Source: a virus. Taken from it: a stretch of DNA of 64,000 bases. Under the pieces are notes generated by a model, which saw nothing but the letters and a program-made list of their open reading frames with translations, was not told the origin of the DNA and searched no databases. The stretch is taken from positions 9,795-73,794 of the IMG/VR virus record IMGVR_UViG_3300046096_000285; one strand, given 5' to 3'. Shown in pieces: positions 28,528 through 47,513 of the stretch. How positions within the stretch are numbered: the stretch's first letter is position 1; every line of letters starts with the position of its first letter. The position numbers were made by a program, and so were the translations under genes.

Positions 28528-28653
28528 CTAGTAGCTCAGCTCCTTCCCAACTTCCAACGAAGCCTGGGACCTGAATGCTGAATTTAGTCCCGTATTCATT
28601 TTTTCAATACACGTATTCATTTTTTCACAAGAGCAAAACACCCGCTGCGTGAT

Positions 28654-28682
28654 TTGACTCGCCGAACCTTTTCTGCTAAGTT
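28654..28682 (+). promoter_or_regulatory. Sigma70-type promoter of first cassette (representative of ~20)
   Basis: TTGACT-17-TAAGTT; equivalent TTGnnn-16/18-TAnnnT follows nearly every 13-mer. Confidence 0.8.
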
Positions 28683-28709
28683 TGACCTAAGCAATGAAAG
28701 GACGGAAAA

Positions 28710-29240
28710 ATGCACGTTGCGCACATACTGCTTGTTCAAGCAGACTCAGCAGAGGACGCCTTTGAGAGGGTCGAAAGCGAACTATCACCAACTGACTATG
28801 GAGTTCGACCAGAGTGGTCAGACTGGCACAATGCCAACAACTCAGCAGAGATGAACTTTGCTGGTCGTTGGACTGGTTCATTCTTCAAGAGCGATAAAGA
28901 GGACGAGCCAAACCCAAACCACCTTTGCTACGCAGATGACAAGGCGCTCGCAGAAAGTGTTATCTCTGACCAGTTAGCCATGCGTGACGCGGAGATTGCC
29001 AACATTAGAAAGAACATGGTTTCAGACCTTTCTACTGTCACAATCAACCACTACGCAGAAAAGTGGAACATGGATTACTGGTATACCCAGAAGTTCCTCA
29101 AGTTGGCAGATAACGAGTGGACTCCAGACTCATACATTTATGACCTAGAAACCAGCACAGCGTCACTTCACTGGTTCATGGAGCGTGTCATGCTCGTGCC
29201 AAAGAAGCAGTTTCTGGTTCCTGTGGACTTCCATTATTAG
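28710..29240 (+). CDS. Hypothetical phage protein
   Basis: GRWTG and LVPVDFHY motifs; AAGGACGG RBS. Confidence 0.7.
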   Translation: MHVAHILLVQADSAEDAFERVESELSPTDYGVRPEWSDWHNANNSAEMNFAGRWTGSFFKSDKEDEPNPNHLCYADDKALAESVISDQLAMRDAEIANIRKNMVSDLSTVTINHYAEKWNMDYWYTQKFLKLADNEWTPDSYIYDLETSTASLHWFMERVMLVPKKQFLVPVDFHY

Positions 29241-29269
29241 AAGTGGAGAAGTGGTGATACACTTTTCTT

Positions 29270-29725
29270 ATGAAATCAATAGACAGATTTACAACTAAAT
29301 ACAAAATCAATCTAGAAACAGGCTGCTGGGACTGGATAGCAGGGACATCGGCTGGGTATGGAGCGTTCGCGTACGAGCGCGGCAAAAAAGCCCATAGATT
29401 CTCGTACGAATACCACAACAACACCATTCTCGGCGAACTGACTATCGACCACTTATGTAGGAATACACTGTGCGTAAATCCAGAACACTTAGAGGCAGTA
29501 CCTAAGGGGGAGAACTCTAGGCGCAGAAATCTCAACCACACCTATAAGAAAAAAGAAGTCTGTAAGAATGGACACTTCATAGGAAAAAATGAATACGTCA
29601 GACCAGATGGCTACTCTGAGTGCCTACTATGTAGGAGTGATAGAGGTAAGGCTTATAGGGAGAAGCATGGAGACGAGCATAGAGCCAAACTTCGTAAGTA
29701 TTACCACGACAAAAAAAATAAATAA
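29270..29725 (+). CDS. HNH endonuclease
   Basis: GCWDW, AHRFSY, DHLCRNTLCVNPEHLEAV..EN, CKNGH. Confidence 0.92.
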   Translation: MKSIDRFTTKYKINLETGCWDWIAGTSAGYGAFAYERGKKAHRFSYEYHNNTILGELTIDHLCRNTLCVNPEHLEAVPKGENSRRRNLNHTYKKKEVCKNGHFIGKNEYVRPDGYSECLLCRSDRGKAYREKHGDEHRAKLRKYYHDKKNK

Positions 29726-29814
29726 AAAACTTTCAAAATAGACTTGACACTTCGAACGAATGGTGTAAAGTTATCAGTAGGTGGAAATCACCACCCAAAA
29801 AGTAAGGACGGAAA

Positions 29815-30285
29815 ATGACAACAATCGTTGAGCCAGTAGTCGAGACAGGTAAGCCAGCAATCGCTGGTGTTGGTATCTATCTCGAACTCGTGCCAAAGGG
29901 CGACAACCCACACAACAAGACCACCCAGATTTTGTTTACCCCACAAGGTATGACAGAAAAGGGTCAGCCAGTAGGACTCGCCATGATTTCTCGTGAGGTC
30001 TCAACTTGGTCGCCACGCAAGCAATGGAGGCACAACTTCTCTCGCTTGACAGCAGAGCAAGAAGCACTCGCACCAGCAGACCAAGCACTCGCACTAATCG
30101 CTCGTTTCGAGACTTCTCTCAAGCGTGAGATTTACTATGGCTACGAACTACGCAACAAGCCAATCGTTTTCGAAGTTACCAACCTAGACCTCGCCGAGGT
30201 TCTGGACTGGAAAGCACCTGCTTCGGCACTACGCCGAATCCAAAAGGCACGAGTATCTCTCGGCTTTCCAGAGAAGTTAGTTTAG
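29815..30285 (+). CDS. Hypothetical protein
   Basis: TTGACA-17-TAAAGT promoter at 29744; GGACGG RBS. Confidence 0.65.
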   Translation: MTTIVEPVVETGKPAIAGVGIYLELVPKGDNPHNKTTQILFTPQGMTEKGQPVGLAMISREVSTWSPRKQWRHNFSRLTAEQEALAPADQALALIARFETSLKREIYYGYELRNKPIVFEVTNLDLAEVLDWKAPASALRRIQKARVSLGFPEKLV

Positions 30286-30308
30286 TCAAGGAATAGGACG
30301 GAAAAATC

Positions 30309-31349
30309 ATGACTACAACCACAGCAACCCCAGCACCAGCAACACGCTCAATGGACACCATTGAGGTAGACGAACTGTTCGCCAATCTGACAGGTATGCT
30401 TTTCAGCGTGGCTGTTCAGGACAAGGACGCAAGTCTCAAGTCTCCAAATCTCGACTCCCTAATGCCACCTGCCGCTCGTGCTAATCTTAGAGCAAAGGCT
30501 GGCACAGGACAGGTAAAGGTAGCGAAGAAGTCAATGGTCAATGTTGAAGCACTAGAGGGTGTCGAGAAGTATCCTCGCCCAAATGGTCAGGATTACTACG
30601 CTCGCCCTTGGGGTGAACACACAGACATCGAGGTTCTCCGCAAGGCTCGAACTGCTGACCAGTTTGTTCTCCTCTATGGTGCGCCCGGAACTGGTAAGAC
30701 TGCCGCTGTTGAAGCAGCGTTCCCAGACGAACTTTACACAGTCTTGGGTTCAGGCGACACCGAAGTTTCTGACCTCGTTGGAGGGTATGTTCAGACTCCA
30801 AGTGGCGGCTTCGAGTGGGTGGACGGTTCTCTCGTTCGCGCCGCCGAAGAGGGTAAGGTTCTTCTCATTGACGAGATTGGTCTCATTGACCCAAAGGTCT
30901 TGTCAATCGTTTATGGTCTCATGGACGGACGCAGGGAATACACCGTCACAGCGAACCCAGAGCGCGGAACTGTCAAGGCGAAAGAGGGCTTCTATGTAAT
31001 CGCCGCGACTAACCCAAATGCCCCAGGAGTTCGCCTATCAGAGGCGTTGCTATCTCGCTTCTCACTCCAAGTTGAAATGACAACTGACTGGGGTCTTGCC
31101 AAGAAGTTGGGCGTTCCAGTAATCGCTGTAACTGCCGCGCAGAACCTTGCGAAGAAGCAGAGCAATGGAGAAGTTTCTTGGTCTCCACAAATGCGTGAGT
31201 TGCTCAACTTCAAGACAGTCTCGACCTTGTTTGGTTCGAAGTTCGCTGTCGAGAACCTCGCAGGTTCAGCACCAGAACTTGACCGTTCTGTTGTGGTAGA
31301 TGTTCTGACCCGAGTGTTCGGCGAAGAAGTCAAGCCAGCCAAGATTTAG
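30309..31349 (+). CDS. MoxR/CbbQ/NorQ-type AAA+ ATPase
   Basis: GAPGTGKT, LLIDEI, IAATNP, LSEALLSRF. Confidence 0.92.
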   Translation: MTTTTATPAPATRSMDTIEVDELFANLTGMLFSVAVQDKDASLKSPNLDSLMPPAARANLRAKAGTGQVKVAKKSMVNVEALEGVEKYPRPNGQDYYARPWGEHTDIEVLRKARTADQFVLLYGAPGTGKTAAVEAAFPDELYTVLGSGDTEVSDLVGGYVQTPSGGFEWVDGSLVRAAEEGKVLLIDEIGLIDPKVLSIVYGLMDGRREYTVTANPERGTVKAKEGFYVIAATNPNAPGVRLSEALLSRFSLQVEMTTDWGLAKKLGVPVIAVTAAQNLAKKQSNGEVSWSPQMRELLNFKTVSTLFGSKFAVENLAGSAPELDRSVVVDVLTRVFGEEVKPAKI

Positions 31350-31470
31350 CAACACCGTCCGTTGCTAATCGGGGAGTGTCAAAAAAGTTTTCGAATGGAC
31401 TTGACACTCCCCACCCACTTATGCTACTTTGTTGGTAGGACGAAACACCAACACGAATAAAGGACGAAAC

Positions 31471-33243
31471 ATGGCACACTTATCTAGACTCTCAACTCGC
31501 ACGAGTTCAACTCCTGTCGAGTGGCTCAAGACCTGTTCACACATTGGCGAAGTTGCTAATGCTTGGGCTGGTCGTGGAGACCTTGCTGTCTACGCTGGCG
31601 AGGACGCTGGCATGGGCGAGGCACTTGCTTGCTTCATTATCGAGACAGCAGAAATCGAAATCAACCTACCAAAGGCTTTTGGCAAGGCGACCACTCCAGA
31701 AATGGTTGGCGACCTACGCTTGCGCGAAGTTCAGTATGACTGGGCAGAGCCAGTTGGCGTTATCTATCACGAGGCACTTCACGCTCGTTACACCACTTGG
31801 AACATGGAGGCACTCAAGGAGAGTCCAAAGGTCGAGATTGACGCTTTCATGTTGCTAGAGGAGTCACGCATTGAAGCACGAGGCGCACGACTAATCCCAA
31901 GTAACAAGTTGTTCTTGCGCTCGTCTGCCCTTGGTCTCTCGATTGGTGACATGGCAGAGGCTGTCAAGGACATGAGCGAGGTCTGGGCGACTGCCAACCT
32001 CGCAGGTCTGGCACTTGCTCGTGTAGACGCTGGCGTTCTCGAAGCGAGTGATGTCACGATTATCGAGGGCAAGGTTCTCGAGATTCTGGGCGAGGACTTG
32101 CTTGGCAAGTTGCGTTCAGTCTGGGTTCGCTTTCAGGCACTAGAGACTTCACAAATGGAACAGGGCAAGGCACTCGCTCAAGAGTGGGTCGAGTTGCTAC
32201 GCGAGGCAGACCCAGAGGGCGAACCTCAAGAGGGTGGCGCAGGTGGCGCAATGTCACAGGCACTCCAAGACTTGATTGACGCGCTTGGCGAGGCTGCTGG
32301 CGATACTGCTGTTCAGGTCTCGATTGACATGGGCGACCAGCAGGATTCAGAGGAACGCAAGGCAGAGGCAGAGGAACGCGCCAAGGAAAGCAAGCGACAG
32401 AACGACAACAAGCAGGAGTCGCGCGAAGTGTTCACTCGCTCGAATGGCTCGACTGGTTCTGGGTCAGATTCACGACTCCAAGAACAGCGCAACCCAACTG
32501 GACACGAACGCGCCGCCGCTGTTCAGATTGCCAAGATGTTGGAAAAGGCAAAGTATCGTGAACGCTCGCTCACCGAAATCAAGAGCCACGCGCCACAGGG
32601 TCGCCTCAAGGCTCGCGTTGCTATTCAGAACGCCGCCGCGAAGTCGCGTGGAGTTCGTGAGACACAGCCAGCGTGGGTCGCCAAGAAGCGCAAGCACACA
32701 GACGACCCGAACCTAAGCATTGGTGTCATGGTGGACATTAGCGGCTCAATGAGTTCGGCAATGGAGGCAATGGCAACTACGGCGTGGGTCATGGGAGAAG
32801 CAGGTCGCCGCGTTCAAGCCAAGACCGCAATGGTCTACTTCGGCTCGGGAGTGTTCTCGACTCTCAAGGTCGGTCAGAAGTTGGACAAGGTTTCGGTCTA
32901 CTCCGCGCCAGACGGAACGGAGAAGTTTGACAAGGCGTTCAAGGCACTAGACGGCGAGTTGAACCTGACCTACGGCGAGGGTGTTCGTATGTTGGTCGTT
33001 GTATCAGACGGACAGTTCACCAGCGTAGAAATGGAAAAGGCTCAAGCCGCGGCTCGCCTTTGTGACCGCAACGGAGTCGCGCTTCTTTGGATTACGCCAG
33101 AGGCTTGCTGGAGTGGCAAGGGTCAAGCCTTGCTCAACGGCACGAGCGGCGTGGTTCTGGACAAGATGAAAACAGACGAGATTGCGCTCGCTATCGGTAA
33201 AGCCGCCGCCGAAGCACTCGGTAAGGTGGGTTCAAAGTTCTAG
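31471..33243 (+). CDS. VWA-domain partner protein with N-terminal HEXXH
   Basis: YHEALH...LEESRIE; MIDAS DISGS, VVSDG. Confidence 0.88.
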   Translation: MAHLSRLSTRTSSTPVEWLKTCSHIGEVANAWAGRGDLAVYAGEDAGMGEALACFIIETAEIEINLPKAFGKATTPEMVGDLRLREVQYDWAEPVGVIYHEALHARYTTWNMEALKESPKVEIDAFMLLEESRIEARGARLIPSNKLFLRSSALGLSIGDMAEAVKDMSEVWATANLAGLALARVDAGVLEASDVTIIEGKVLEILGEDLLGKLRSVWVRFQALETSQMEQGKALAQEWVELLREADPEGEPQEGGAGGAMSQALQDLIDALGEAAGDTAVQVSIDMGDQQDSEERKAEAEERAKESKRQNDNKQESREVFTRSNGSTGSGSDSRLQEQRNPTGHERAAAVQIAKMLEKAKYRERSLTEIKSHAPQGRLKARVAIQNAAAKSRGVRETQPAWVAKKRKHTDDPNLSIGVMVDISGSMSSAMEAMATTAWVMGEAGRRVQAKTAMVYFGSGVFSTLKVGQKLDKVSVYSAPDGTEKFDKAFKALDGELNLTYGEGVRMLVVVSDGQFTSVEMEKAQAAARLCDRNGVALLWITPEACWSGKGQALLNGTSGVVLDKMKTDEIALAIGKAAAEALGKVGSKF

Positions 33244-33476
33244 GATTCCACTAGCGCAACGGTAGGCTTTCGGGTTCGTTCATGCCCGCCTCCTTTCCCT
33301 ATCGGCTACTGGATAGAGACCCTCGACAGATTCGTCCCTGTCGGGGGTTTCGCACTTTCGGCGAGCGCAGGTCGTATTCATTTTTTCATTCTGTCTTTCG
33401 ACTTCTGACGAAAGATGTTTGACACTCGTTTGAAGTATGCTAAGTTTGAACTATTCCTAGAAAGGGGAAAACAGAA

Positions 33477-34403
33477 ATGCCAAATCACGTTTGGAACAGC
33501 ATTGGGGTTTCAGGGGCTATCGCTGACATTGAAGCGTTCGTTGCTAAGGCTGGCAAGCCACACATTACAGAGTTCAAGGGCAAGCGTTATCAGGACGAAA
33601 CTGGCGCTTGGAAGTATGACCCAGAGATTATTGACACCCACGAGGACACAGACCCATTCTCATTCTGGAACTTCATAAAGCCAGACGACGAGATTCTTCC
33701 TGTCTACTTTGGACACGAGAAGTCAGAGAAGCCAGAGGGCTACGAGGGCTGGGACTTCGCGGAGAAGATGGCGCACGACCTCAAGTTCACAGGCAACAAC
33801 GCATACGACTGGAACGTTCGCAACTGGGGAACCAAGTGGGACGCATACGACCAGACCTTCGACGGCGTGACAACTGACGAAGCGATTGGAAAGGCGAGTG
33901 CGACTTACAGTTTCAATACGGCGTGGAGTATCCCAGTTCCAGTATTTGAAGCACTCTGCGAACAGCACCCAGAGTTGAGTTTCTCGTTTGAGTCGGAGGA
34001 GGAACAGGGCTGGGGCGCGACTTACGAGTCAAGCGCGGTAGACGACCCAGAGGACGGCGAGCCTACATCCGCACTACTTCTCATCAGCGAGTGGGACATC
34101 CCTGAGAGCCACGCAGAGTTGGTAGCCCGAGGGCGAGAATGCCACTGCGAGTATGACGACGACGAGGACTCGTGGTATGACGACTGCCCTCGTGAAGAAC
34201 GAGTGTTCACCGTTGTCGTTGAGCAGACTTTCGTGGTCAAGGCGACGGACGCAGAGAAGGCTTGGGAACTTGCCGAGGAACACCTCAACAAGCCGATTGA
34301 GAACTTGCCAGAGGGAGTCGAGCAGTCGGATGAGTATTCGCTGTTCGTCAAGAACCCAGAGACTGGCGAGCGTTTGTATCCGACACTCGGAGGGGGTGAG
34401 TAG
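33477..34403 (+). CDS. DUF1281/YubB-like ferredoxin-fold protein
   Basis: MPNHVWN, YDWNVRNWGTKWD, FNTAWS.P. Confidence 0.8.
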   Translation: MPNHVWNSIGVSGAIADIEAFVAKAGKPHITEFKGKRYQDETGAWKYDPEIIDTHEDTDPFSFWNFIKPDDEILPVYFGHEKSEKPEGYEGWDFAEKMAHDLKFTGNNAYDWNVRNWGTKWDAYDQTFDGVTTDEAIGKASATYSFNTAWSIPVPVFEALCEQHPELSFSFESEEEQGWGATYESSAVDDPEDGEPTSALLLISEWDIPESHAELVARGRECHCEYDDDEDSWYDDCPREERVFTVVVEQTFVVKATDAEKAWELAEEHLNKPIENLPEGVEQSDEYSLFVKNPETGERLYPTLGGGE

Positions 34404-34649
34404 CGTGGCAACACCAAAGACACCGAAGCCGAAGATGGGCAACGGCGCAACGACTCGTCTGACAGACGGACGACGCAAGTAGCAGAGGGAGAGGGCGAAA
34501 GCCCTCTCTTTTCTTTTGCCCCTCGTATTCATTTTTTCGTCATTGCCACGCCGATACACGCCGCGATTTGACACGAGTTTGGAATAGGGTATAGACTACG
34601 AGAGTAGTCAACGAGGAAATGCCTCGACTACACAAAGGAGGGGATTGAA

Positions 34650-35042
34650 ATGGCAACTGCCGAACTTCAATCAGCACAGGTTGCTAAGGCGACCACCAGC
34701 ATTACCAGCACCACAGAGGACAACCTAGTTGTTCTAACCCCTGCGATTCAGAAGCAGGTCAAGGCACTACGCGAGGCTCGCAATGTAGCGAAGCAGGCAA
34801 AGGCTCTAGGGGATACAGCACGAGACGTTATCTTGGAGTTCGTGGGGGAGACCACCACCAACCTCGTGGGCGTGGACGCAAAGGGCAAGCGTTTGATTAG
34901 CCTCAAGTTGATTCCAAGTTCAGAGAGTTTCGACTGGGCACGACTTCAACTTCAGCAGCCTGAGTTGTTCGAGATGCTCAAAAAGGAATACACCATTCCT
35001 CGTGGGGCAGGCGCACCAACTCCACGAGTGGACACGATTTAG
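34650..35042 (+). CDS. Hypothetical protein (similar to 38657..38983)
   Basis: Cassette gene; helix then FD...L....PELF. Confidence 0.6.
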   Translation: MATAELQSAQVAKATTSITSTTEDNLVVLTPAIQKQVKALREARNVAKQAKALGDTARDVILEFVGETTTNLVGVDAKGKRLISLKLIPSSESFDWARLQLQQPELFEMLKKEYTIPRGAGAPTPRVDTI

Positions 35043-35205
35043 TCCACTCACGAAAGTCGCTGGCGAGAGTTCCCCTCTCTCGCTGGCGATTTTTTGTATG
35101 GAGGCTGTATTCATTTTTTCATTAGATCCATAACTTCCAACGAATGGTTTGACTTGGAGATAACAAACTGGTAAAGTGGAAGTAACTCAACCAAAGGGGA
35201 TTCAA

Positions 35206-35658
35206 ATGAGAACCAGAGAATACGACCTCAACGTTTACGTCACAGATGGCGTGGCACGTTTGTCAGCATACGAATACACATATAGCGACAGCGACGACCC
35301 TCAGCCAAATGGCACAGAGATGAGCAAGTTCGTCACGTTGGAAGTTCCAATGGACAAAGCACACCACGACGAAGTGGCGTTTCTACTGAGCGACGAGGAC
35401 TGGCAAGACTCACCAGTGGCAGACTGGCAGGACTACGACAGCCCATGGGAAAACTTGGCGTGGCTAGAGACAGCACCGGCAAGCATAAGAGCGTGGGGAG
35501 ACGCGCTCGCGGAATACGAGCCGACCACTCAACACGAGTGGGAACTCTACACAATGGACTTGAAATACGGCGAACGGCGAGACGTGAAGTGCCTCAACTG
35601 CGACGCGACATACCCTATCTACCGTTTGACATGGGAACAGATGACGGCTAAGGTGTAG
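35206..35658 (+). CDS. Hypothetical protein
   Basis: AAGGGG RBS after cassette promoter. Confidence 0.6.
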   Translation: MRTREYDLNVYVTDGVARLSAYEYTYSDSDDPQPNGTEMSKFVTLEVPMDKAHHDEVAFLLSDEDWQDSPVADWQDYDSPWENLAWLETAPASIRAWGDALAEYEPTTQHEWELYTMDLKYGERRDVKCLNCDATYPIYRLTWEQMTAKV

Positions 35659-35660
35659 GT

Positions 35661-35885
35661 ATGAGAAAAGACATCAAGCAACTACGGATACTCGCAGAGC
35701 AACAAGGCTGGAGAGTAGAGCGCACTAACGGCGACCACTTACGGTGGCTCGCGCCAGAGGGTGGCATGGCTATCTACTCGGCAAGCACACCGTCTAATGC
35801 TCGCGGAATACTCAACCTCAGAGCGCAACTGCGTAAAGCGGGTCTACATTTAGAGAAGCACGGCAAGCAAAAGGTGAACGCATGA
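35661..35885 (+). CDS. HicA-like protein
   Basis: L..QGWRVERT.GDH.RW..P...STPS....N....L...G. Confidence 0.65.
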   Translation: MRKDIKQLRILAEQQGWRVERTNGDHLRWLAPEGGMAIYSASTPSNARGILNLRAQLRKAGLHLEKHGKQKVNA

Positions 35886-36178
35886 AACTGTATCGGCAAG
35901 CACTAGGCGAGGTTCTGCGCGAAGCAAGAACGGTGAGGGGTCAGACCCTGCGACAAGTCTCAACGGCTGCCTCGTGCGCCCTCGGATACCTGTCGGAGTT
36001 GGAGAACGGACACAAGGAAGCGTCCTCGGAGATTTTGGAGGGGCTTGCCCGTGCGCTCAAGGTGACGGTGAGTGAACTCGCTATCCGTGCTGGCTTGCGT
36101 ATAGCGGAGGAGAGTATCCCTGATACCCCTGCCGAACTCTACGAGGAAGCACCGGCCCTCATTCCTCACCGAGGATAG
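35882..36178 (+). CDS. XRE HTH regulator, ClgR-like
   Basis: LGEVLR..R...G.TLR.VS..A...LGYLSELE.G.KEASSE.L. Confidence 0.82.
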   Translation: MKLYRQALGEVLREARTVRGQTLRQVSTAASCALGYLSELENGHKEASSEILEGLARALKVTVSELAIRAGLRIAEESIPDTPAELYEEAPALIPHRG

Positions 36179-36292
36179 CCTCGGGTGGTAACCCCGTATT
36201 CATTTTTTCAACAACCGACACGGCGAGCGCAATACTTGCTTGACGGCTTGCCGTAGGGTATAGTTGGACTATCCAATGAAAGGGGTTGCCAA

Positions 36293-36688
36293 ATGGCAGA
36301 GAACATCACAACGGCGGGGCTAGTAGCCACCACACCAAGATACCTAGTCACGGCAGACGGCTTGCCGATTACTTCATTCCGGCTTGCCACAACTTCAAGA
36401 AAGTTTGACGCGCGAACTGGCGAGTGGGTTGACGGCGAGGCTAACTGGTATACCGTTACCGCCTTCCACGACTTGGCTATCAATGCGGCAAGCAGTATCG
36501 AGAAGGGTCACCGTATTGTCGTTCAAGGCGCGGTTAGAGTGCGCGACTGGGATAACGGCGAGCGAAGCGGAACATCCGTAGAGATTGAAGCCGAGGTCAT
36601 AGGTCACGACTTGAGTTGGGGAACCGCTGTGTTCACCCGAACCGTCTTGACTCGTAGGGTAGAGAAGCCAGAGACCGTGGGGGTATAG
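36293..36688 (+). CDS. ssb: Single-stranded DNA-binding protein (no acidic tail)
   Basis: FRLA...R......EW.DG..NWY.V..F..LA.N...S..KG.R..V.G, IGHDL.WG. Confidence 0.9.
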   Translation: MAENITTAGLVATTPRYLVTADGLPITSFRLATTSRKFDARTGEWVDGEANWYTVTAFHDLAINAASSIEKGHRIVVQGAVRVRDWDNGERSGTSVEIEAEVIGHDLSWGTAVFTRTVLTRRVEKPETVGV

Positions 36689-36864
36689 AGACCTTACCGA
36701 ACAGATAGAGAAAACGCGGGAACTTGCTATCCCGCGTTTTTTCATAGTCGGGGTCGTATTCATTTTTTCAACCGGCACGACACTTCACACTAAGATTTGG
36801 AAGTTGGCACGGAAAGTGGTAAGGTTGAACTATCACCGAAGACAAGGGTGAGAAAAGGGAAGAG

Positions 36865-37038: not shown

Positions 37039-37165
37039 GGCAGAGTGTTACGACTGTGACGCGGAAATTGAAGTCGAAGACTCAACCTATGTCCACCCCT
37101 TGTGCGCTGAGTGTCAGAACGAAGCAGACGACTGGCTACAAACACAGATGTTGCTAATGAACTAA
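37031..37165 (+). CDS. Small zinc-finger protein
   Basis: CYDC...CAEC. Confidence 0.55.
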   Translation: MAKAECYDCDAEIEVEDSTYVHPLCAECQNEADDWLQTQMLLMN

Positions 37166-38983: not shown

Positions 38984-39207
38984 ACGCCACGAGGAAGCCC
39001 CCTAGGATTCTCTAGGGGGTTTTTCCTTACCCTAAACACGCCAAGCCCGCCACGAGGCACACAGCCCCGCCACGAGGGCGTATTCATTTTTTCGTCAAAA
39101 CACGCCAGCTGAGGATTTGATTTGACAAGTGTCCGGCTTATGGATAAGATTTAGTTATAACTAAATAGATGCACCACTCAATGCACCACCAACCTAAGGG
39201 GATTCAA

Positions 39208-39537
39208 ATGGCAACTATGGCACCTGCTACCAACACCACTACCAAGTTCGACCTAGGCGCGACTCTAGACGAGCCGACCACCGCATCAGTCGTCACCGAG
39301 GTCGAGAAGTTCGACAACACTATGGTCTATGCCAAGACTTCACTAGAGATGTTCGTTAGCGCGGATAACGTGGATGACACAGTCTACCTTGACCTTCGCC
39401 AACTCAACTTTGTACGACTGGGCCCAACCGACGAAGAACAGATGCACGTATTCACCACCTTGCTCAACCACCGCTTCACTCGCGAGCAGGCCGAGGCACT
39501 GGTCGCCACGTTCACTCACGAACTCGCGAAACTCTAG
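39208..39537 (+). CDS. Hypothetical protein
   Basis: AAGGGGATTCAAATG start. Confidence 0.6.
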   Translation: MATMAPATNTTTKFDLGATLDEPTTASVVTEVEKFDNTMVYAKTSLEMFVSADNVDDTVYLDLRQLNFVRLGPTDEEQMHVFTTLLNHRFTREQAEALVATFTHELAKL

Positions 39538-39690
39538 CGAGCGCGACAAGCCCCTGTCGAAAGGCAGGGGTTTTGTCATTCCCCGGCTGTATTCATTTTT
39601 TCACAAGAAGACACAGGAGTGGGCTGAGATACTATGTTTTGTCCGAGGGGTTTGATAAAATGGGAGTATCCAAATGAAAGGGGATAAAGA

Positions 39691-40047
39691 ATGACAAACT
39701 ACAGCGACGTGGAAGTTGCTCTTGAGAACGCTAAGGCGATTGCTTGGGACACCTGCCACAAGATTTACGTTCTAATGGATGACGAGCAAGTTGAGAAGAT
39801 GCGCGAGTACGAGTACGACCCTCTAATCACGAGCGACGAGATGGACCCTAGCGAAATGCTGTCCACGATTCAAACTTGGTATGAGGACTCTTGCGGATTG
39901 CGTTTCGTAGAAAGCGTCACCACAAATCACGAAGACCCTAACCTTGGGTTTGAAAGTCTGATTCCACAGGGCGCGGATGACGAAGATGACGACACCGACG
40001 AATCTGAAGACGACTACTTCGATGACGAGGATGACGAAGATGAGTAA
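39691..40047 (+). CDS. Acidic hypothetical protein
   Basis: IAWDTCHKIY...W..SC.LRF motif; D/E tail. Confidence 0.7.
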   Translation: MTNYSDVEVALENAKAIAWDTCHKIYVLMDDEQVEKMREYEYDPLITSDEMDPSEMLSTIQTWYEDSCGLRFVESVTTNHEDPNLGFESLIPQGADDEDDDTDESEDDYFDDEDDEDE

Positions 40048-40240
40048 GTTCGCGTTCAACCTAGTTCTCAAGACTGATTACATCGAAGCAGAGAACATCG
40101 AAGAAGCAGAGAAGTTGCTGAACAAGTACATCGATGGGCTGGCTATGGTTGGTGAGCCTGAGATTACTTGGGACGAAGTTGACTGGCAGACCTTTGAAGG
40201 CGACCTAGTAATCAAAGACTTTAGTTCGCCCCTCAACTGA
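40040..40240 (+). CDS. Small hypothetical protein
   Basis: Coupled; ends before terminator. Confidence 0.55.
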   Translation: MSKFAFNLVLKTDYIEAENIEEAEKLLNKYIDGLAMVGEPEITWDEVDWQTFEGDLVIKDFSSPLN

Positions 40241-40405
40241 GCACGAAGAAGAACGCTCTCGAAAGAGGGCGTTTTTTCTCAGGCCCGTTGTATTCATTTT
40301 TTCAACTGGCGACACGGGGGGTTGGTCGAAAGTTGCGAAGGTTTGTCGAAAGTAGTAAAGTAGTTCTGTTGGCAAAAGCCAGCGTAAAGGGATAAGGGGT
40401 TTGAA

Positions 40406-40630
40406 ATGAAGTTTGTAGTTCGTAGAGCAGTCATTGGAGTTCTAGCAGTTCCAGCAGTAGCCGGTGCGTATGTGTTTGGGTATCTAGGTCTGTTGCTTCT
40501 AGGCGCGGAGGGTGCGCTCAAGATTGAAGAAATCTGGAACAATGGAATGTTGATTGGTGGCGTGTGTGCCGTAATGCTCGTGTTCGCGCCACAGGTAAAC
40601 AAGTTCCTCGACAGGGTTACTGGAGAGTAA
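40406..40630 (+). CDS. Two-TM membrane protein
   Basis: Two hydrophobic helices; cassette gene. Confidence 0.65.
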   Translation: MKFVVRRAVIGVLAVPAVAGAYVFGYLGLLLLGAEGALKIEEIWNNGMLIGGVCAVMLVFAPQVNKFLDRVTGE

Positions 40631-40856
40631 AAGACTTGGCAGGGTTTATCCCCCTATCCCCTGCCCAAGAAAAGAGCGTGACCATTCCGCTCACGGCTAG
40701 GCACTTCCCCCAAGTGTCTAGCCTTTTTCTTTGCTCGGAAGTGTATTCATTTTTTCACCCTGCGACACGCGGATACAGATTGGATTTGCGCTCGCCGAGG
40801 ATTTCCTGTAATGTAGTTCTTGTAGCCAGCAAGGGGTTGGCAGACAAGGGGTTCAA

Positions 40857-41015
40857 ATGCTAAAGACTTCAACAGCCGAGTGCGTAGATTGCGCGGTTGC
40901 TATCACCAGCGACAACACGCAAGACGAGGGTGGAAAGTTTGCTTCACCACAGGGGGAATACGCTATCTGCGACAACTGCGCCAATGCTCGCATTGACGCT
41001 TACCTAGAGAACTAA
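40857..41015 (+). CDS. Small zinc-finger protein
   Basis: CVDC...CDNC; AAGGGG RBS. Confidence 0.6.
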   Translation: MLKTSTAECVDCAVAITSDNTQDEGGKFASPQGEYAICDNCANARIDAYLEN

Positions 41016-41027
41016 GGGGCAGGGAAA

Positions 41028-41252
41028 ATGGCCGACTCAATGAAAGGTTCTGGGATTGACTCCGAGGACTACACCGCTTGGTTCTTTTGCTCACATTGTG
41101 ACGAGGAACTGGAACTTGATGGAAAGTCAGACGACTATGGGATTATTGCGACAGCCGAGTGTCCTAAGTGCCGTTCAACCCTAGAGGTTGAAATGCCTAG
41201 CAAGGAACAGTTGCGCGAGGACTACCTAGCCGACTACGACCCAAACAACTAA
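41028..41252 (+). CDS. Small zinc-ribbon protein
   Basis: CSHC...CPKC. Confidence 0.65.
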   Translation: MADSMKGSGIDSEDYTAWFFCSHCDEELELDGKSDDYGIIATAECPKCRSTLEVEMPSKEQLREDYLADYDPNN

Positions 41253-41497
41253 ATAGACTTACCTAGCGCGGGCAACTTCGCTAGGTGGGAGAGAACCGAG
41301 TAACCCCCTTGCTCGTGCGACTCCGAAAGAGCCAGACACTAATCCCCTTGTGTCTGGTTCTTTTGTTTCTACGGTGCTATTCATTTTTTCAGCAAGACTC
41401 CCCCGGGCGTGTCGATTTGCGCCACCCTGGTTGGGGTGCTACAGTTGATACTGTAGTCAGGAAGCAGATAGCGGAGGGCTACACGCAAGGGGAAGAA

Positions 41498-41833
41498 ATG
41501 TCTTCAATCATTACTGTTCCAGTTCAGTTCCAGGCCGAGGACTTCTGGAGTGAAATCATGGGTTCAGCCTGGGAGACCTGGGACTGGTGGGTGACCCTGG
41601 ACTACAGCCAGGGCGCGTCCTGGGACAAGGTTGGCGAAATCACCGTTACATCCTGGGACGGCGAGACCGAGGGCGAGACCCTAGTCACCAAGACCCTCAC
41701 CATCCAGGACCTGGCTGAGTCTTACGGCAAGTGCCTGGCCGAAGGGTTCCGAATCAACATCCACGACCTGGACGCCGGCCAGGGCGACGTCATCCTTCAG
41801 ATGGCAATGTTCGGAGAAGTCGTCTACGGATAG
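41498..41833 (+). CDS. Hypothetical phage protein
   Basis: DLDA..GD.ILQ.A.FGEVVYG C-terminus; AAGGGG RBS. Confidence 0.7.
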   Translation: MSSIITVPVQFQAEDFWSEIMGSAWETWDWWVTLDYSQGASWDKVGEITVTSWDGETEGETLVTKTLTIQDLAESYGKCLAEGFRINIHDLDAGQGDVILQMAMFGEVVYG

Positions 41834-41870
41834 TTTCACCAGGACGCCCCTCGGCAGAAATGCCGGGGGG

Positions 41871-41921
41871 TTTTCCACAGCCTGTGGAAAGTTATCCACA
41901 GACTTATCCACATGTGGATAA
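41871..41921. promoter_or_regulatory. Cluster of five DnaA boxes
   Basis: TTTTCCACA 41871, TGTGGAAAG 41883, TTATCCACA 41892, TTATCCACA 41904, TGTGGATAA 41913. Confidence 0.85.
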
Positions 41922-42066
41922 CTTTTTTTGGAGAGGTCTATTCATTTTTTCGTCAAACGACACGCACTTACGGAGACGATTTGACAGCTGCCAAAAACCC
42001 GAGTAGGCTTACTAATGTAATCAGGAAGCCAAGGGGGCGGAGGGTTACTGAAGGGGTGGGGTTCCA

Positions 42067-42405
42067 ATGGGACTTCTTATCAGCGTGTATCGGTCGGACT
42101 ACGACAGCAAGGCAAATGTTTTCCACGGAAAGCGTCAGCTAGTTCTCGTGAATGTCGAAGGGCCATTCCAGCCATCAGACAACGCACCAGCTGCCAAGTT
42201 GGTTCAGGGTCACGGTAAGACCGCAATCATCGTGCCAGCGGACGAAGGCTTTGACGGCGTTCAGATGAACGGCGGAACTTACGGCTCAACCAGCGACAGT
42301 CGCTTTCAGCGAGCCGTAGAGGGACTAGTCGGAGTCTCACACTTTGCGGTGGCAATCCACGACCGTCGTGAGTCGTGGGCGGAATACGAGCAGTTCAGCC
42401 AGTAG
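42067..42405 (+). CDS. Hypothetical phage protein
   Basis: M.GG.Y..TSDSRF...IHDR.E motif. Confidence 0.7.
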   Translation: MGLLISVYRSDYDSKANVFHGKRQLVLVNVEGPFQPSDNAPAAKLVQGHGKTAIIVPADEGFDGVQMNGGTYGSTSDSRFQRAVEGLVGVSHFAVAIHDRRESWAEYEQFSQ

Positions 42406-42560
42406 GCAACCAAGCGAAAGGCTCACCCGAAGGGGTGGGCTTTTTTCTTGCTCGTTAGTCTATTCATTTTTTCATCCGGATGCGGGGAAGCTTGCGCGGT
42501 TCGTTGGAAGTTGGTAAAGTTGGAGTATCAACCAGATTGGTTGAAGATAAGGGGCTTCAA

Positions 42561-42908
42561 ATGGAAAAGATTGGTTTGGTAGTGGACTCGGAGTTCACCG
42601 CGTCTGTGACCAGGTTGTCACTCAAGGAACTACAAGCTGCGGTCGATGGTCTGATTCAGCCGATTGACATTCGCGAGGGCTTGACTATGTGGGTAAACGA
42701 GGAGTTCTTGTTTCGCTCAGAACCAGACGCAAACGTTTTGGCTAGTGCGTTCTTCGCTGAGGCTGGTGGAAAGTATGACATCCACGGAACTGTCGTCTTC
42801 ACTGGTGGCACGGATGAGGATGGCAACACTCTCGGGCTGTCAGACGAGCACCGCGAGTTAGTGGAGTCGCTCTGTAAGTTCGGGATTGGCGTTCGCGAAA
42901 TGGCTTAG
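42561..42908 (+). CDS. DUF3846-like protein
   Basis: L.ELQ.AV.G.I....MWVNEE......N..A.....I.G.VVF.G. Confidence 0.75.
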   Translation: MEKIGLVVDSEFTASVTRLSLKELQAAVDGLIQPIDIREGLTMWVNEEFLFRSEPDANVLASAFFAEAGGKYDIHGTVVFTGGTDEDGNTLGLSDEHRELVESLCKFGIGVREMA

Positions 42909-43080
42909 ATTTCAAAAAAGGAAAGTCCGGCTTCGGTCGGGCTTTTTCTTTTTCTCGGGGCTATTCATTTTTTCCTTCAGCTCGCAGACAACACACGGAA
43001 GTTCGTGGGAAGTTGCGTAGGCAGGGCGTTTCGATTAGGCTTAGGTCATAAGCCAAATGGTTTGGCGAAAGGGGATTCAA

Positions 43081-43314
43081 ATGGCAACCAAGAACGCGAA
43101 CGCAGATTTCGTTTTCGAACTCGTTATGAAGATGGCGGGCGGGGCGGACAAGTATTCAATCCACACTCAGGGCGCAATCTGGGCTGAGTGTCAGCGCAAC
43201 TCATCACTACAAACGCTAGCGGGAATGTATCTCGTTGGTTCATCAGCACGCGCAGAGAACAACCTAAAGAAGTTGCGCTCTGCCGTTTACTCAACATTCC
43301 TAGAGAGGAACTAA
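43081..43314 (+). CDS. Hypothetical protein
   Basis: AAGGGGATTCAAATG start. Confidence 0.6.
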   Translation: MATKNANADFVFELVMKMAGGADKYSIHTQGAIWAECQRNSSLQTLAGMYLVGSSARAENNLKKLRSAVYSTFLERN

Positions 43315-43316
43315 TA

Positions 43317-43544
43317 ATGGCAATGTCATACGGAGAGCGTAAAGCGCAAGCAATCGCTAGGCGTAATGCGGAACTACTCACGCGAGATTCTATGTTGGAG
43401 ATTCGCAGTATTCTAAGTCCAATGCCCTACGCGCCTAAGTCGGTGCTAGAGGGCGTGCCGTTCGTAATAGAGAACTTGACCCCAATGGAATTAGATGTGG
43501 AGTTCGTGGGCGACACAATCACAATCAAAGAAGCGGTGCGCTAA
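43317..43544 (+). CDS. Hypothetical protein
   Basis: GAGG RBS, coupled. Confidence 0.55.
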   Translation: MAMSYGERKAQAIARRNAELLTRDSMLEIRSILSPMPYAPKSVLEGVPFVIENLTPMELDVEFVGDTITIKEAVR

Positions 43545-44325
43545 TGCGGGCGTGGCACTTGCTCAAGTATCGAACTTGGCGCGTGGTCGGTTCGCTGGCG
43601 TTCGGTCTGTATCACCGCTCTGCTCAATGGTCTCACGAAGCGTTCGTGCGGGCTGGCAAGTCTGGTGCGGACAATGACTAGGGGCGAGAGTCTGGCTGTT
43701 CTTTTACGCTCGGTGGCTGGCGGTCTGGGATTTGTCTGGCTGTTTGGTTTTGCCGTTGGCTGGCAAGACCCTGTATCGCCGTTCGTTGTTTCCACACTTG
43801 CCGTTGGATTCTTGTGGGGTGCGTGGCGCGTGGGTCGTTAGTGACCCCGCGTTCGCGCTTGCGTGCGGACTATTCATTTTTTCCCTAATCCCCCTGCGGG
43901 CACACGGATGATTTGACTTTCATTTGCGGAGTAGGGTAGGCTAGTCGTAGACCAGCCAAGGGGGCTGGGGAGAGGGGCATCATGATTCACATCTTCTGTG
44001 CGGACTGCGACGGCTGGGACTCGTTCCCATCTGGCGGGTCACACAACTGCGAGACCGTCGAGTTCGTTACCAACCCATCCGCTGGGTTCATCGGTGGCGA
44101 CTGCTGGTTCGGGGACGACTCGGACTACTAGGCGAAAGCCTAGCCAACCCCTCACCTTCGGGTGGGGGGTTTCTTTCTGTTCGTGAGAAGTTGTCTGTGC
44201 GGGAGTGCTATTCATTTTTTCCCTAGGCGACACGCTTGCGGGGGGTATGATTTGACTTTGCCGGAGGATGTGTTAGGCTAGTCCTAGGACAAGCCAAAGG
44301 GGCTTGCCAGAAAAGGGGATTCAAA

Positions 44326-44496
44326 ATGTTCGGTCAGACTTTCTCAGGAATCGAAATCACTGTTCGCGAAGCAAACGGCTCAATCGTATGTGCGCCAACC
44401 TACGAAGCACACACCACGGCGAAGCAGTTGGAACTTATCAACGCAACCAAAGCAATGCTTACCGCTGGTCGCTCAATCACTTGGCGTTTGTTCTAA
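44326..44496 (+). CDS. Small hypothetical protein (56 aa)
   Basis: AAGGGGATTCAAAATG start; fills cassette. Confidence 0.6.
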   Translation: MFGQTFSGIEITVREANGSIVCAPTYEAHTTAKQLELINATKAMLTAGRSITWRLF

Positions 44497-44802
44497 GCCA
44501 ACTTCCAACGAAGCCCGTCACCTCGGTGGCGGGTTTTGTTTTGCCCTGTGGGTCTATTCATTTTTTCGTCAAGTCGGGCATGCGGGTGACACGATTTGAT
44601 TCGCGCACCGTAAAGTGCTAAGCTCATGGGTAGAGCTTCAAAGGGGGGCTCAATAGTTCAAAGGGGTATTTATGTTTGGGTTCAACGAGTGCGCACACTC
44701 TGAGTCGGAATCGTATGGCACTAGCCAGATTCATTGGGATGACCGCTCTGCGGGTATCGGCTGGGTTCAAGCTCCGTGCGCTGAGTGCGGGGAATCGCTA
44801 AC

Positions 44803-45564
44803 ATGGGTTATCAACGCATGAGCGCCCTGCTAGCAACCCGCGAGACTACTGCGGGCATTATCGCGGGGATGCTTACCGAAAACACTGGTCGGAGCTTCCT
44901 AGACTCTGGGGGTGAATCGGGACGTGCGTGGCAGAGAAACGCGGGCATGACCGTGGCAGACTTTGAAGCCCGCCCTGCGGGTACCTATGACGCTGAGTAT
45001 GAGACGCTTACGGTAGACACATTCCATTACTTGAATGAGCTACTAACCTTTGACGCTGAGCGCACTGCGGAATGGGTGACCTTTGACGCTGAGCGGTCGC
45101 ACCTATCGTGGGGCGAAACTTTGGATGAATGGCTTGACACTCTAGGCGTCCCTGCCGAAGGGGGTGGGGATTTTTACTCTAACGCGCGATGGGGATTCAA
45201 CAGCTACAACTTTGATGGGTGTTTGCTGAGCTCCACGATTCAGGGCGTCAAGTTTGTCTCTGCGGGCACTGAGTACCTAGCCCTTCAGATTCATGGCGGG
45301 GCTGACGTGCGGGGCGGTTACACGGCATTCAAGATTTTCACTGGAGACATTGAATCAGTGATTCTCGGGACTACTCGCGCAACCCTGCGATGCCCTGAGT
45401 GCGACTTTTATGCGGGCTACTCCGATGGCATGTTGGAAGATTACTACCTAGGTGACGCGCTAGCTGACCCGAACATGTTGATTGAGATGGATGTGCCTAC
45501 GGAGCTCCCTGCGGGATGGGCAATCTCTGACGGTTGCCCTTTGCATAAGGTCGCTCTGGTTTAG
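44803..45564 (+). CDS. Hypothetical phage protein
   Basis: MLTENTG..FLDSGG..GR.WQRN, FNSYN, LQIHGGADVRGGYT. Confidence 0.75.
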   Translation: MGYQRMSALLATRETTAGIIAGMLTENTGRSFLDSGGESGRAWQRNAGMTVADFEARPAGTYDAEYETLTVDTFHYLNELLTFDAERTAEWVTFDAERSHLSWGETLDEWLDTLGVPAEGGGDFYSNARWGFNSYNFDGCLLSSTIQGVKFVSAGTEYLALQIHGGADVRGGYTAFKIFTGDIESVILGTTRATLRCPECDFYAGYSDGMLEDYYLGDALADPNMLIEMDVPTELPAGWAISDGCPLHKVALV

Positions 45565-45733
45565 CTCTACTCGGGAACCCCTGCTTCGGCGGGGGTTTTC
45601 GCATGTGCGGGGGAGCTATTCATTTTTTCCTGCTCTGCAACGAGTGCGGGCGTGATTTGACAAGTTTCGAATAGCTGATAGGATTTAGTCATAACTAAAT
45701 AGCTCCAATTAACCGACAACCAAAGGGGACAAC

Positions 45734-45976
45734 ATGTCAACAGCAACAACTACCGCTAGCTTCTTCGTGCTAGCCGTCTCAACCAAGGGTGAGCTGCGCT
45801 TCACCCGTGGCAACAGCTTCGTTACTCGCGGTGCTGCAACCTTCGAAGCTTCTCAGAGCAACAAGCTCACTGAGCACCTTCGTGCTCAGGGATGGGACAC
45901 TAGCTACAAAGTGTTCTCTGCCGATGAGCTCAACGCCCTGGGTGCGCTAGGTATTCGCATCGGTGAAGCCTACTAG
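45734..45976 (+). CDS. Hypothetical protein
   Basis: Last motif-bearing cassette. Confidence 0.6.
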   Translation: MSTATTTASFFVLAVSTKGELRFTRGNSFVTRGAATFEASQSNKLTEHLRAQGWDTSYKVFSADELNALGALGIRIGEAY

Positions 45977-46102
45977 GCACACGCTCAAAGATGACCCCGC
46001 CATCGTGCGGGGTTTTCTTTTTGCTCAGGGGTTGCATTTATCTTGCGGGGCATGTATGATTGACTTATCAAGTCAAGGTGACTTGGAGATAAGGGGTTCA
46101 AA

Positions 46103-46315
46103 ATGAAAACACGTAACGCACGCGCATGGAGCGCAATCTTTATTCTTGGCATGGCAGTAGTCGGCGCGGTCGACTTGAACAACATCCAATCAGCTGACGA
46201 TGCCAGTGAATTCTTTGGGTACGTTGTCGCTGTAGACGTGGCCATGTTTGCGGTAGGCCTAGCCCTGTTCGCCTACAACATCGCAACCTTCAAGCGTTCA
46301 AAGGTAGGTGCATAA
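46103..46315 (+). CDS. Two-TM membrane protein
   Basis: TTGCAT-17-TATGAT promoter; GATAAGGGG RBS. Confidence 0.6.
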   Translation: MKTRNARAWSAIFILGMAVVGAVDLNNIQSADDASEFFGYVVAVDVAMFAVGLALFAYNIATFKRSKVGA

Positions 46316-46548
46316 TGACGCACGCGGTGTTGATTGAAGATGCACTTACGGGTGACCTTCTTGACCTTCGTTACTACTGCTCTGATTCATGCGCTCAGGA
46401 TGACGTGGCCTACTCAGGATGGAATGGCTGCATTGAGCTCATGTTTGGGCAAGTGTGTGAGCGTGAAGGGTGTGAGAGCATCCTGCATGGCGTGAGCGAG
46501 TGTGTCTGCTCTGACGCTTCGTGTGTCGGGTCTCTGATAGACGTCTAG
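46315..46548 (+). CDS. Cys-rich small protein
   Basis: YCSDSC and further Cys; TAATG coupling. Confidence 0.55.
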   Translation: MTHAVLIEDALTGDLLDLRYYCSDSCAQDDVAYSGWNGCIELMFGQVCEREGCESILHGVSECVCSDASCVGSLIDV

Positions 46549-47513
46549 CCCCTAAGCATCCACGTTAGCCCCTAGCTCAGTGCTAGGGGTTTTCGTATGT
46601 CTGCGGGCACCTTATCCCTGCGGTGACCTTATAGGGGCGTCTCAGGGCGTATAGCCCCCTGCGGTGACAACTATCCTGCGCTCAGGGTTGCACGCTCTGC
46701 CACGGGTCTCTCTAGCCACGTGTGCCCCTATGCACTAGCGGGCGGGGTGTAGCTAGCTCATGCTCATGAGTAGGTTGGTACCTAGGCATGGGCATGCTTA
46801 TCACTGGAGATTCTGAGCATGACCTTTGTCTAGCCATGACCGGGCGCGTGAGCTATCGATTGATGAGAGCATGAACAACAAGCAACCCTTCATGGGTAGC
46901 CGCTAGCGAGACGGGCATTAGGCGTGTGCATGAACACCTAGGCATGATAGGCAGCCATAGAATCCATGAGCGTGCTCACCTTGTCGCTCACGTGGCTAGG
47001 GGTTGTTGGCGTAGGGTGTAGGATAGGCATGCTTCTCAAACGGGCATGTATCAATTTGGAAAACATGCTTGACTTTGGTCGCGGGTTATGGTAGACTACT
47101 CCATCTTTTGGCGTGACGGACGGTGCTCCACGGCCGATTCAGGAAACGTTTCGAGAGGGGTCGATTTATAGCTGCTGCCCTCTCGCACCCCAAAAGCATT
47201 TCAACGTCAACCTTACCCTAGTGCCGTCGGTTGTCAAATTCCTCCTTGAATTCTCCTACCTTAGACGCCCCTATTTCTAAAATCCCCCTCCACAAATTTT
47301 CAAAAAATACGTCCCAAGTTGCATCACGACCAAAAATCCGACATAATAGACGCAGTTATTGTGCTACCATATTTAAACGGGAGCGCATTCAGCCACTAAA
47401 AGGTTGGATGTGCTTTTTTGCATCTCTGACAAGTACCACCCACAATTAAATAAGAAACACCAAGACAAGAAACAGCTGAGTACTAACTCTCACCAGGAAA
47501 GGTAGGCTGCCTA

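Follow-up and report, generated by a model that had tools for sequence, protein, structure and literature searches.

A palindrome desert over a promoter-marked cassette array in an uncultured freshwater actinobacterial phage

Within a 64,000-nt stretch of DNA from an uncultured freshwater actinobacterial phage, an array of about 22 small gene cassettes is nearly devoid of GATC and of many other short palindromes. This stretch, the window, covers positions 9795 to 73794 of IMG/VR record IMGVR_UViG_3300046096_000285, and all coordinates below refer to it unless stated otherwise. The avoidance is confined to palindromes, operates through synonymous codon choice, coincides with an array of promoters marked by a repeated 13-mer, and recurs in related phages. 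The view that it represents avoidance of restriction sites is well supported. We further consider it probable that the array is under this selection because it is the part of the genome that first meets the host unprotected, as in phage T5.

A single block of the genome is depleted of palindromes

GATC occurs at 28467, then at 35125, and next at 47574, so that a single site lies inside 19,103 bp. From the trinucleotide content of the block, a Markov model predicts 49 sites in this gap, and the density elsewhere in the 73.8-kb record (3.04 per kb) predicts about 58; the Poisson probability of finding at most one site where 49 are expected is ~3e-20. An initial annotation of this DNA had described GATC as nearly absent across the cassette array and common outside it, as these counts bear out; its figure of ~70 expected sites was somewhat high, although the strong deficit stands. 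It had also described AGCT and TGCA as scarce up to ~44 kb. Both descriptions agree with the site positions: AGCT is missing between 28539 and 37812 and remains sparse until 44.6 kb, and TGCA is found at 28711, three times within 39.17 to 39.44 kb, and then first at 45542. Sliding-window palindrome counts, the check proposed alongside those remarks, put GATC far below its normal density and extended the deficit to many other palindromes.

28468-47573, unstranded: interval free of GATC except for the sole site at 35125, with ATAT and TTAA nearly absent too (from site positions and expected counts)
28560-44620, unstranded: core multi-palindrome desert, in which eleven 4-bp palindromes pooled reach 0 to 17 per kb, versus 35 to 67 per kb in the flanks
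44621-47450, unstranded: array tail, in which AGCT, TGCA, GGCC, and GTAC are normal and GATC, ATAT, and TTAA are still absent

To rank all tetranucleotides, the 256 words were merged with their reverse complements into 136 and ordered by the ratio of observed to expected counts (O/E) over 28560 to 47500. The 12 lowest ranks were all occupied by palindromes (Mann-Whitney p = 9e-9), namely, GATC (O/E 0.02), ATAT (0.07), TTAA (0.11), AATT (0.18), GGCC (0.20), TGCA (0.25), GTAC (0.26), AGCT (0.49), CCGG (0.52), ACGT (0.52), TATA (0.56), and TCGA (0.69). Outside the block, the same 12 words had O/E values of 0.75 to 1.18 (GATC, 0.83; TTAA, 0.91; TGCA, 1.03). Four palindromes, CGCG, GCGC, CTAG, and CATG, were undepleted in the block, and nonpalindromic tetranucleotides were normal there, AT-rich ones included. 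Some interrupted 5-mers (GGNCC, GCNGC, CCNGG, TANTA, and ATNAT) were low in the block, and six-base palindromes with undepleted cores were mildly low (61 observed versus 104 expected). The desert is thus real, highly nonrandom, and specific to palindromes.

The two edges differ in shape. The left edge is sharp and falls at 28.47 to 28.59 kb, where the last sites are GTAC at 28432, TGCA at 28449, GATC at 28467, and AGCT at 28538. The right edge is graded over 44.6 to 47.6 kb: AGCT becomes dense at 44.6 kb after a sparse reappearance from 37.8 kb, TGCA is back from 45.5 kb, and GATC, ATAT, and TTAA are seen again only at 47.37 to 47.57 kb. When eleven depleted words were pooled, their density was 50 to 67 per kb at 25 to 28 kb, 0 to 2 at 30 to 35 kb, 1 to 17 at 35 to 45 kb, and 32 to 40 from 47 kb onward, with five undepleted palindromes holding at 11 to 42 per kb along the whole profile. 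The cassettes of the array tail (44621 to 47450) have no homologue in G001, a complete relative of 153,711 bp that is collinear with the window and has a portal 78% identical to the one found here. The stretch adjoining the desert on its left, 25000 to 28500, is itself the palindrome-richest of the window, with 50 to 67 of the eleven words per kb, ~1.5 to 2 times the density of the right flank; the 26- to 28-kb bin alone holds 20 GATC sites.

The desert coincides with an array of promoter-bearing cassettes

28593-45629, forward strand: 22 exact copies of TATTCATTTTTTC, with one reverse copy at 29583-29595 and none elsewhere in the 73.8-kb record
28654-28682, forward strand: first sigma-70/SigA-type promoter, TTGACT-17-TAAGTT
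29270-29725, forward strand: HNH homing endonuclease gene, with three GTAC sites inside the desert
30309-31349, forward strand: AAA_5 (MoxR-like) ATPase, a conserved anchor of the array
31429-33243, forward strand: 604-amino-acid (aa) partner of the ATPase, a conserved anchor of the array
36293-36688, forward strand: single-strand DNA-binding protein (SSB) cassette
39691-40047, forward strand: very acidic protein of 118 aa (net charge, -35) with no recognised fold
41871-41921, unstranded: three perfect DnaA boxes (41892-41921) and one near match in a 51-bp stretch that has a terminator on one side and a 13-mer on the other

Each of the ~22 cassettes has the same order of parts: a terminator, the 13-mer, a -35/-10 promoter, a Shine-Dalgarno site, and a small gene. 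The terminator is seen as a hairpin and T-run directly before each 13-mer copy. A match to TTGNNN-N16-18-TANNNT lies 15 to 60 nt downstream of 21 of the 22 forward 13-mers, compared with 1.5 of 22 for random array positions. This motif-anchored test was used instead of generic promoter and terminator scans, which did not rise above shuffled controls. The first 13-mer is doubled, with copies at 28593 and 28614, and coincides with the left edge of the desert, as the initial annotation had noticed. Promoters of the host type make it most likely that these cassettes are early genes, a timing that we infer from the promoters.

The array products also include an XRE-type helix-turn-helix (HTH) protein, a weak HicA-like match, and a DUF3846 protein, and several are very acidic. 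The HNH region is polymorphic at 29212 to 29714, where a contig from one sequencing run (X1) skips 501 bp and carries 26 other letters instead. Because the HNH gene holds three GTAC sites inside the desert and is missing from the X1 contig, it looks like a recent mobile insert. The only reverse-strand copy of the 13-mer (29583 to 29595) lies inside this insert.

Avoidance operates at the DNA level through synonymous codons

We examined codon choice in the open reading frames (ORFs) of the array. Asp preceding a codon that starts with C is encoded by GAC 33 times and by GAT never (81:33 in the rest of the genome), and Ile following a codon that ends in G is encoded by ATT 55 times and by ATC never (49:46 in the rest); ATC is otherwise used 55 times in the array. 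Palindrome avoidance therefore operates via synonymous codon choice. It is not limited to genes: residual sites of the eleven palindromes occur at 5.7 per kb in coding DNA and 5.4 per kb in spacers. Because the spacers are as depleted as the coding DNA, it is the whole DNA molecule, beyond its reading frames, that is protected.

The conserved anchors give the same picture. The ATPase and partner genes contain none of the 11 palindromes either here or in G001, with the exceptions of one CCGG (in the ATPase gene, here) and two TATA (in G001), and their orthologues in Actinomycetia phage DSL-LC01 and phage A3Wally have normal palindrome counts. Genes outside the block (gp1-like and portal) have normal counts in all four phages. 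Within the array, cassettes with a G001 homologue are cleaner, and those without one carry more residual sites. The cleaner conserved cassettes and the site-bearing HNH gene fit gradual purging after acquisition.

Many related phages carry the same desert with different avoided words

49722-52163, forward strand: large terminase with LAGLIDADG intein, 46 to 49% identical to terminases of actinophages with long direct terminal repeats (DTRs) (E = 1e-105 to 1e-147)

The parent IMG/VR record is 73,794 bp long and of the linear class, with a CheckV completeness of 44%; all sequencing runs that bear it are freshwater metagenomes. When the block was searched by megablast, none of 50,697 phage records matched. 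Judged by the large terminase, DSL-LC01, assembled from a lake metagenome, is the closest phage with a name (73% amino-acid identity), and the window is collinear with it in gene order; the next terminase relatives are large Microbacterium, Gordonia, and Arthrobacter phages. The source is an uncultured freshwater actinobacterial phage of the ~150-kb genome class. Its terminase is 813 aa long because of an intein-like insert (Hom_end/LAGLIDADG_3, residues 274 to 346); the DSL-LC01 orthologue, at 469 aa, has no such insert.

Using the ATPase as the query, we recovered 80 IMG/VR loci, 70 of them with enough sequence for a palindrome test, and a desert was called where at least 3 palindromes had an O/E of <0.2 within the 10 kb starting at the ATPase. 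A desert was found in 45 of the 70 loci. When the 70 loci were pooled, an O/E of <0.2 was reached in 359 of 1,091 tests of palindromes versus 13 of 8,391 tests of nonpalindromic tetranucleotides. The upstream flanks, where long enough, were mostly normal, with some lineages lacking 1 to 6 words, often GATC or CCGG. The set of avoided palindromes depended on the lineage: some sets include CATG, TCGA, CGCG, or GCGC, and of these CATG, CGCG, and GCGC are spared here.

The complete genome of G001 has one desert, extending from ~8.2/8.7 to 22.3/22.7 kb in reverse-complement coordinates, or 14 of its 153.7 kb, and the 15 lowest tetranucleotides within that desert are all palindromes. A variant of the motif, TATTTATTTTTTC, is present there in 15 copies, all forward, at 8613 to 22274; these are coextensive with the desert, and no copy lies elsewhere in the genome. 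Other exact 13-mer variants, each specific to a lineage, were found among loci L025 to L104: GTATTTATTTTTTCT, GTATTCGTTTTTTC, GTATCCACTTTTT, GTTTTCATTTTTTC, and TAGTTATTTTTTC. Such lineage-specific variants suggest a DNA-binding protein that coevolves with the motif.

Avoidance over longer stretches also exists in this group. In several of the L025 to L104 lineages, GATC and AGCT, or GATC and CCGG, are missing over the entire 20-kb locus (in L050 to L056, GATC and AGCT are absent throughout). DSL-LC01 (L009 to L011; OQ999401.1), at 129 kb, has zero ATAT, zero TTAA, and 880 GATC sites, a case of genome-wide avoidance. One contig among the relatives (G003, the contig of locus L060; 160,704 bp) holds two different portal genes, at 17366 to 19027 and 153716 to 155338, and may be chimeric or may join two related phages in one sequence.

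The array plausibly lies within a long terminal repeat

25042-26986, forward strand: left flank, palindrome rich, with a conserved 294-aa gene and an endolysin
47514-49535, forward strand: right flank, normal palindrome density, with an NlpC/P60 tail-lysin-like gene, small ORFs, and a 197-aa HTH protein

The genes on both flanks are of the late type (lysis, tail-lysin, and terminase). The 294-aa gene (ORF 25042-25926) is the homologue of gene 1 in the terminal repeats of A3Wally and Pumpernickel; the 197-aa HTH protein (ORF 48942-49535) is small-terminase-like and is the homologue of the last gene in the A3Wally repeat. Beyond the right flank come the intein-bearing large terminase and then the portal.

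Cultured terminase relatives have exact DTRs of 15,503 bp (A3Wally), 19,963 bp (Pumpernickel), and 7,581 bp (GodonK). In A3Wally and Pumpernickel, the repeat starts 62 to 63 bp before the homologue of ORF 25042-25926 and ends 0.6 to 1.8 kb past the homologue of ORF 48942-49535. Synteny would thus place a repeat here from ~25.0 to ~49.6 kb, with the array inside and palindrome-rich late genes at both tips. The ends at ~28.56 and 47.2 kb that the initial annotation had suggested for a terminal repeat are unsupported, since synteny with these two phages gives ~25.0 and 49.6 kb. Repeat limits vary within the clade, however, and A3Wally has no desert and carries its ATPase genes elsewhere in its genome. 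A location of the array within a collapsed long terminal repeat is plausible; any long repeat would be collapsed in the assembly of a 73.8-kb fragment.

Contigs were examined as a further source of evidence on the ends. In the four runs examined, assembled contigs bridge both edges of the desert (X6, 28001-30280; X7, 28001-28844; X5, 47032-48000). No step in contig depth was seen at 28.56 kb, an X6 contig at 27752-30280 having a depth of 17.8 versus 17.9 for a conserved contig inside the array, a measure that is too coarse to decide the matter, with one figure per contig and mixed strains. Among the relatives, five contigs end ~780 to 840 bp upstream of the gp1-like gene, and we considered this clustering as a sign of termini; we rejected it, as sister contigs read through and the five contig starts are not at one homologous position. 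The sequence around the right repeat boundary is common to A3Wally and Pumpernickel, and inspection by eye of four candidate stretches of the window, with no search made, found no counterpart to the boundary sequence.

Restriction avoidance in DNA probably exposed first, and its alternatives

We propose that selection on the DNA itself has removed Type II restriction sites from the whole block, its spacers as well as its genes, and that the block would be the only DNA that host restriction enzymes meet unprotected. The block would enter or be exposed first and would be transcribed by host RNA polymerase, after which its products would counteract restriction or allow the remaining genome to enter. 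Cassettes acquired recently would still bear sites, and related phages would avoid different sets because the restriction systems of their hosts differ. The initial annotation had likewise suggested that this DNA enters first, before anti-restriction or methylation acts. Palindrome specificity, synonymous avoidance, the array of host-type promoters, the lineage-specific word sets of the relatives, and a weaker signal of the same kind in T5 all fit restriction avoidance in DNA exposed first, with the order of entry as the conjectural part. More tentatively, and with somewhat less confidence than doubt, we suggest that these phages form a large and abundant freshwater actinobacterial family with T5-like staged entry in which a motif-marked array of 14 to 35 kb goes first, with the leading end here at ~28.5 kb and not where synteny predicts it.

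Several points weigh against exposure of the array before other DNA. Entry order and expression timing are both inferred from sequence. With A3Wally-like limits, the desert would be separated from the physical end by 3.5 kb of palindrome-rich DNA (50 to 67 per kb), a tip that is awkward for a simple model of tip-first entry. Neither the A3Wally terminal repeat nor the syntenic region of DSL-LC01 has a regional desert. Family and fold searches of the array products found no recognisable anti-restriction protein. A tblastn search with the ORFs of at least 50 aa from the T5 repeat (dmp, A1, and A2 included) found none in the record at E <= 1e-3, and the terminal ORFs of SPO1 have zero homologues there; the resemblance to those phages is therefore functional, not familial.

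Two of the acidic array products were examined further. The 118-aa protein consists of 34% Asp plus Glu and has invariant Cys and His positions, and its homologues form >800 clusters at 90% identity in public metagenomes, at 60 to 94% identity to it. It matched no Pfam family and had no Atlas neighbour, and its AlphaFold model (pLDDT, 81) had no PDB match at E <= 0.001. On its charge alone it is a candidate DNA mimic; as a mimic of the Ocr or ArdA kind it was rejected, charge being the sole resemblance in those family, neighbour, and fold searches. A second acidic array protein, of 308 aa, gave zero PDB sequence matches. We also considered the DnaA box cluster as an analogue of the T5-type injection-stop region, with its conserved repeats and DnaA boxes. 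Such a role is doubtful: the cluster is absent from the G001 desert and is not conserved in most relatives, and it sits inside the array and not at its end. A pair of DnaA boxes is present in the A3Wally terminal repeat, at 13751 and 13763.

Of the alternatives, the one that survives best is that the desert is exactly a collapsed long DTR, with ends at ~28.5 and 47.4 to 47.6 kb, and consists entirely of first-transferred DNA. We regard this as possible, if rather unlikely. It would leave no palindrome-rich DNA at the tip, and it suits the left edge, where all palindromes stop within 28467 to 28581 and the first 13-mer follows at 28593. In G001 both edges are sharp and fall at the first and last motif copies, and such edges resemble what fixed physical or functional limits might leave. 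The terminase relatives, moreover, all package long DTRs whose boundaries vary (7.6, 15.5, and 20.0 kb). Against this, synteny places both repeat ends beyond the desert, where the homologues of ORFs 25042-25926 and 48942-49535 lie, and the lack of a depth step at the left edge in run X6 is weak evidence in the same direction.

It is improbable that the enzymes being avoided are the phage's own, that is, palindrome-cutting nucleases that destroy host DNA while only the block is inside the cell. This idea corresponds to Davison's proposal for T5 gene A1, and the concept has been discussed for T5 (10.1101/866236). It predicts equally well a desert confined to DNA that is resident early, and the array does hold an HNH nuclease and genes without assigned function. 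The avoided words are too numerous, however: 10 to 12 palindromes here and up to 15 of 16 in relatives would demand too many specificities of one phage. The HNH gene is a dispensable insert, and no restriction-like nuclease family was found among the array products.

That the block was imported as a mosaic piece from a lineage with genome-wide avoidance of these words, which would make the pattern historical and not maintained in place, is still harder to credit. Genome-wide avoiders do exist, as DSL-LC01 (no ATAT or TTAA) and loci L050 to L056 (no GATC or AGCT) demonstrate. Yet a syntenic desert is present in 45 of 70 relatives, most of those with testable upstream sequence having normal flanks, and its edges match the promoter-motif array in two genomes. 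Import also predicts that novel cassettes should be the cleanest and the conserved core the dirtiest, the reverse of what is seen. Last and least credible is a depletion that has nothing to do with restriction and reflects targets of host methyltransferases, binding of a nucleoid protein, or the structure of heavily transcribed DNA: palindromes made only of A and T are avoided too, and AT-rich DNA is the preferred target of actinobacterial Lsr2, but GGCC, GATC, GTAC, and TGCA are avoided as strongly, nonpalindromic AT-rich tetranucleotides are spared, and the avoided sets shift between close lineages.

Comparison with known systems

In SPO1, an array of small early genes with strong host-type promoters, the host-takeover module, lies in a 13-kb terminal redundancy. 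The cassettes described here are alike in forming a cluster of small genes with individual host-type promoters and terminators, plausibly inside or beside a long terminal repeat. They are unlike the SPO1 module in that there is no homology and in that the SPO1 ends have no regional desert; over the outermost 13 kb of the SPO1 record, we found only the avoidance of GGCC and CGCG that characterises the whole SPO1 genome.

Experiments on T5-like and T7-like coliphages have already established that only the first-entering DNA needs to be free of sites. In T5-like phages, restriction acts only via sites in the first-step-transfer DNA (PMC10644984), and restriction of one Autographiviridae genus depends solely on motifs located in the region injected first (PMC12455610). 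A survey of site avoidance in viruses (PMC6286503) mentions neither early genes nor injection, and a genomic footprint as extreme and sharply bounded as this one was not found in the literature searched.

We used the T5 terminal repeat as a positive control. Palindromes occupied ranks 1, 2, 3, 8, 11, and 12 among its tetranucleotides (lowest O/E, 0.46; p = 2e-4), the rest of T5 was near an O/E of 1.0, and the six EcoRI sites of T5 all lie outside the repeat. The first-step-transfer DNA of T5 and BF23 (Demerecviridae), a terminal repeat of ~10 kb, resembles the array in making up ~8 to 12% of the genome, in its small genes, and in its use of host RNA polymerase; T5 also shares regional palindrome depletion with none in the rest of the genome, as well as long DTRs, which here are seen in the terminase relatives. 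The differences from T5 are that the depletion here is ~10 times stronger and covers 10 to 12 palindromes, that each cassette has its own promoter, terminator, and exact 13-mer, and that the host is an actinobacterium. In T7-like Autographiviridae, sensitivity is likewise decided by the leading, first-entering DNA that the host transcribes, with strong host promoters all pointing inward. Unlike those phages, this one yielded no Ocr homologue or Ocr-like fold, its region spans 19 kb instead of 1 to 6 kb, and it is a ~150-kb phage whose terminase relatives are of the long-DTR type. The long-DTR actinophages A3Wally, Pumpernickel, and GodonK are alike in their related large terminase (46 to 49% identity). 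Genome-wide avoidance (DSL-LC01; PMC6286503) is similar in that short palindromes are purged synonymously, whereas here the purging is restricted to one sharply bounded block and the rest of the DNA has O/E values of 0.75 to 1.18.

If the array is indeed the first DNA exposed, a desert of this kind would be a footprint, readable from sequence, that marks out first-transferred DNA in uncultured phages and points to probable staged injection. The sets of avoided words would then report the restriction specificities that circulate among lake host populations, and widely conserved early proteins, such as the acidic 118-aa protein and the MoxR-like ATPase pair, would be flagged as anti-restriction candidates.

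Other features of the array and its left flank

At 35661 to 36178, a weakly HicA-toxin-like ORF of 74 aa is followed, with a 4-bp overlap, by the XRE-type HTH protein, and both are conserved in G001. The pair may be toxin-antitoxin-like or may act as a regulator of the array. Another repeated word, AACTTCYAACGRAG, is matched 12 times versus 0.1 expected, located in the window at 20003 to 28562 and additionally at 35132, 42499, and 44500. Most of its matches fall in the late/lysis region directly to the left of the array and on the coding strand, often a short way ahead of gene starts or after stops, and the word may be a control element of late genes.

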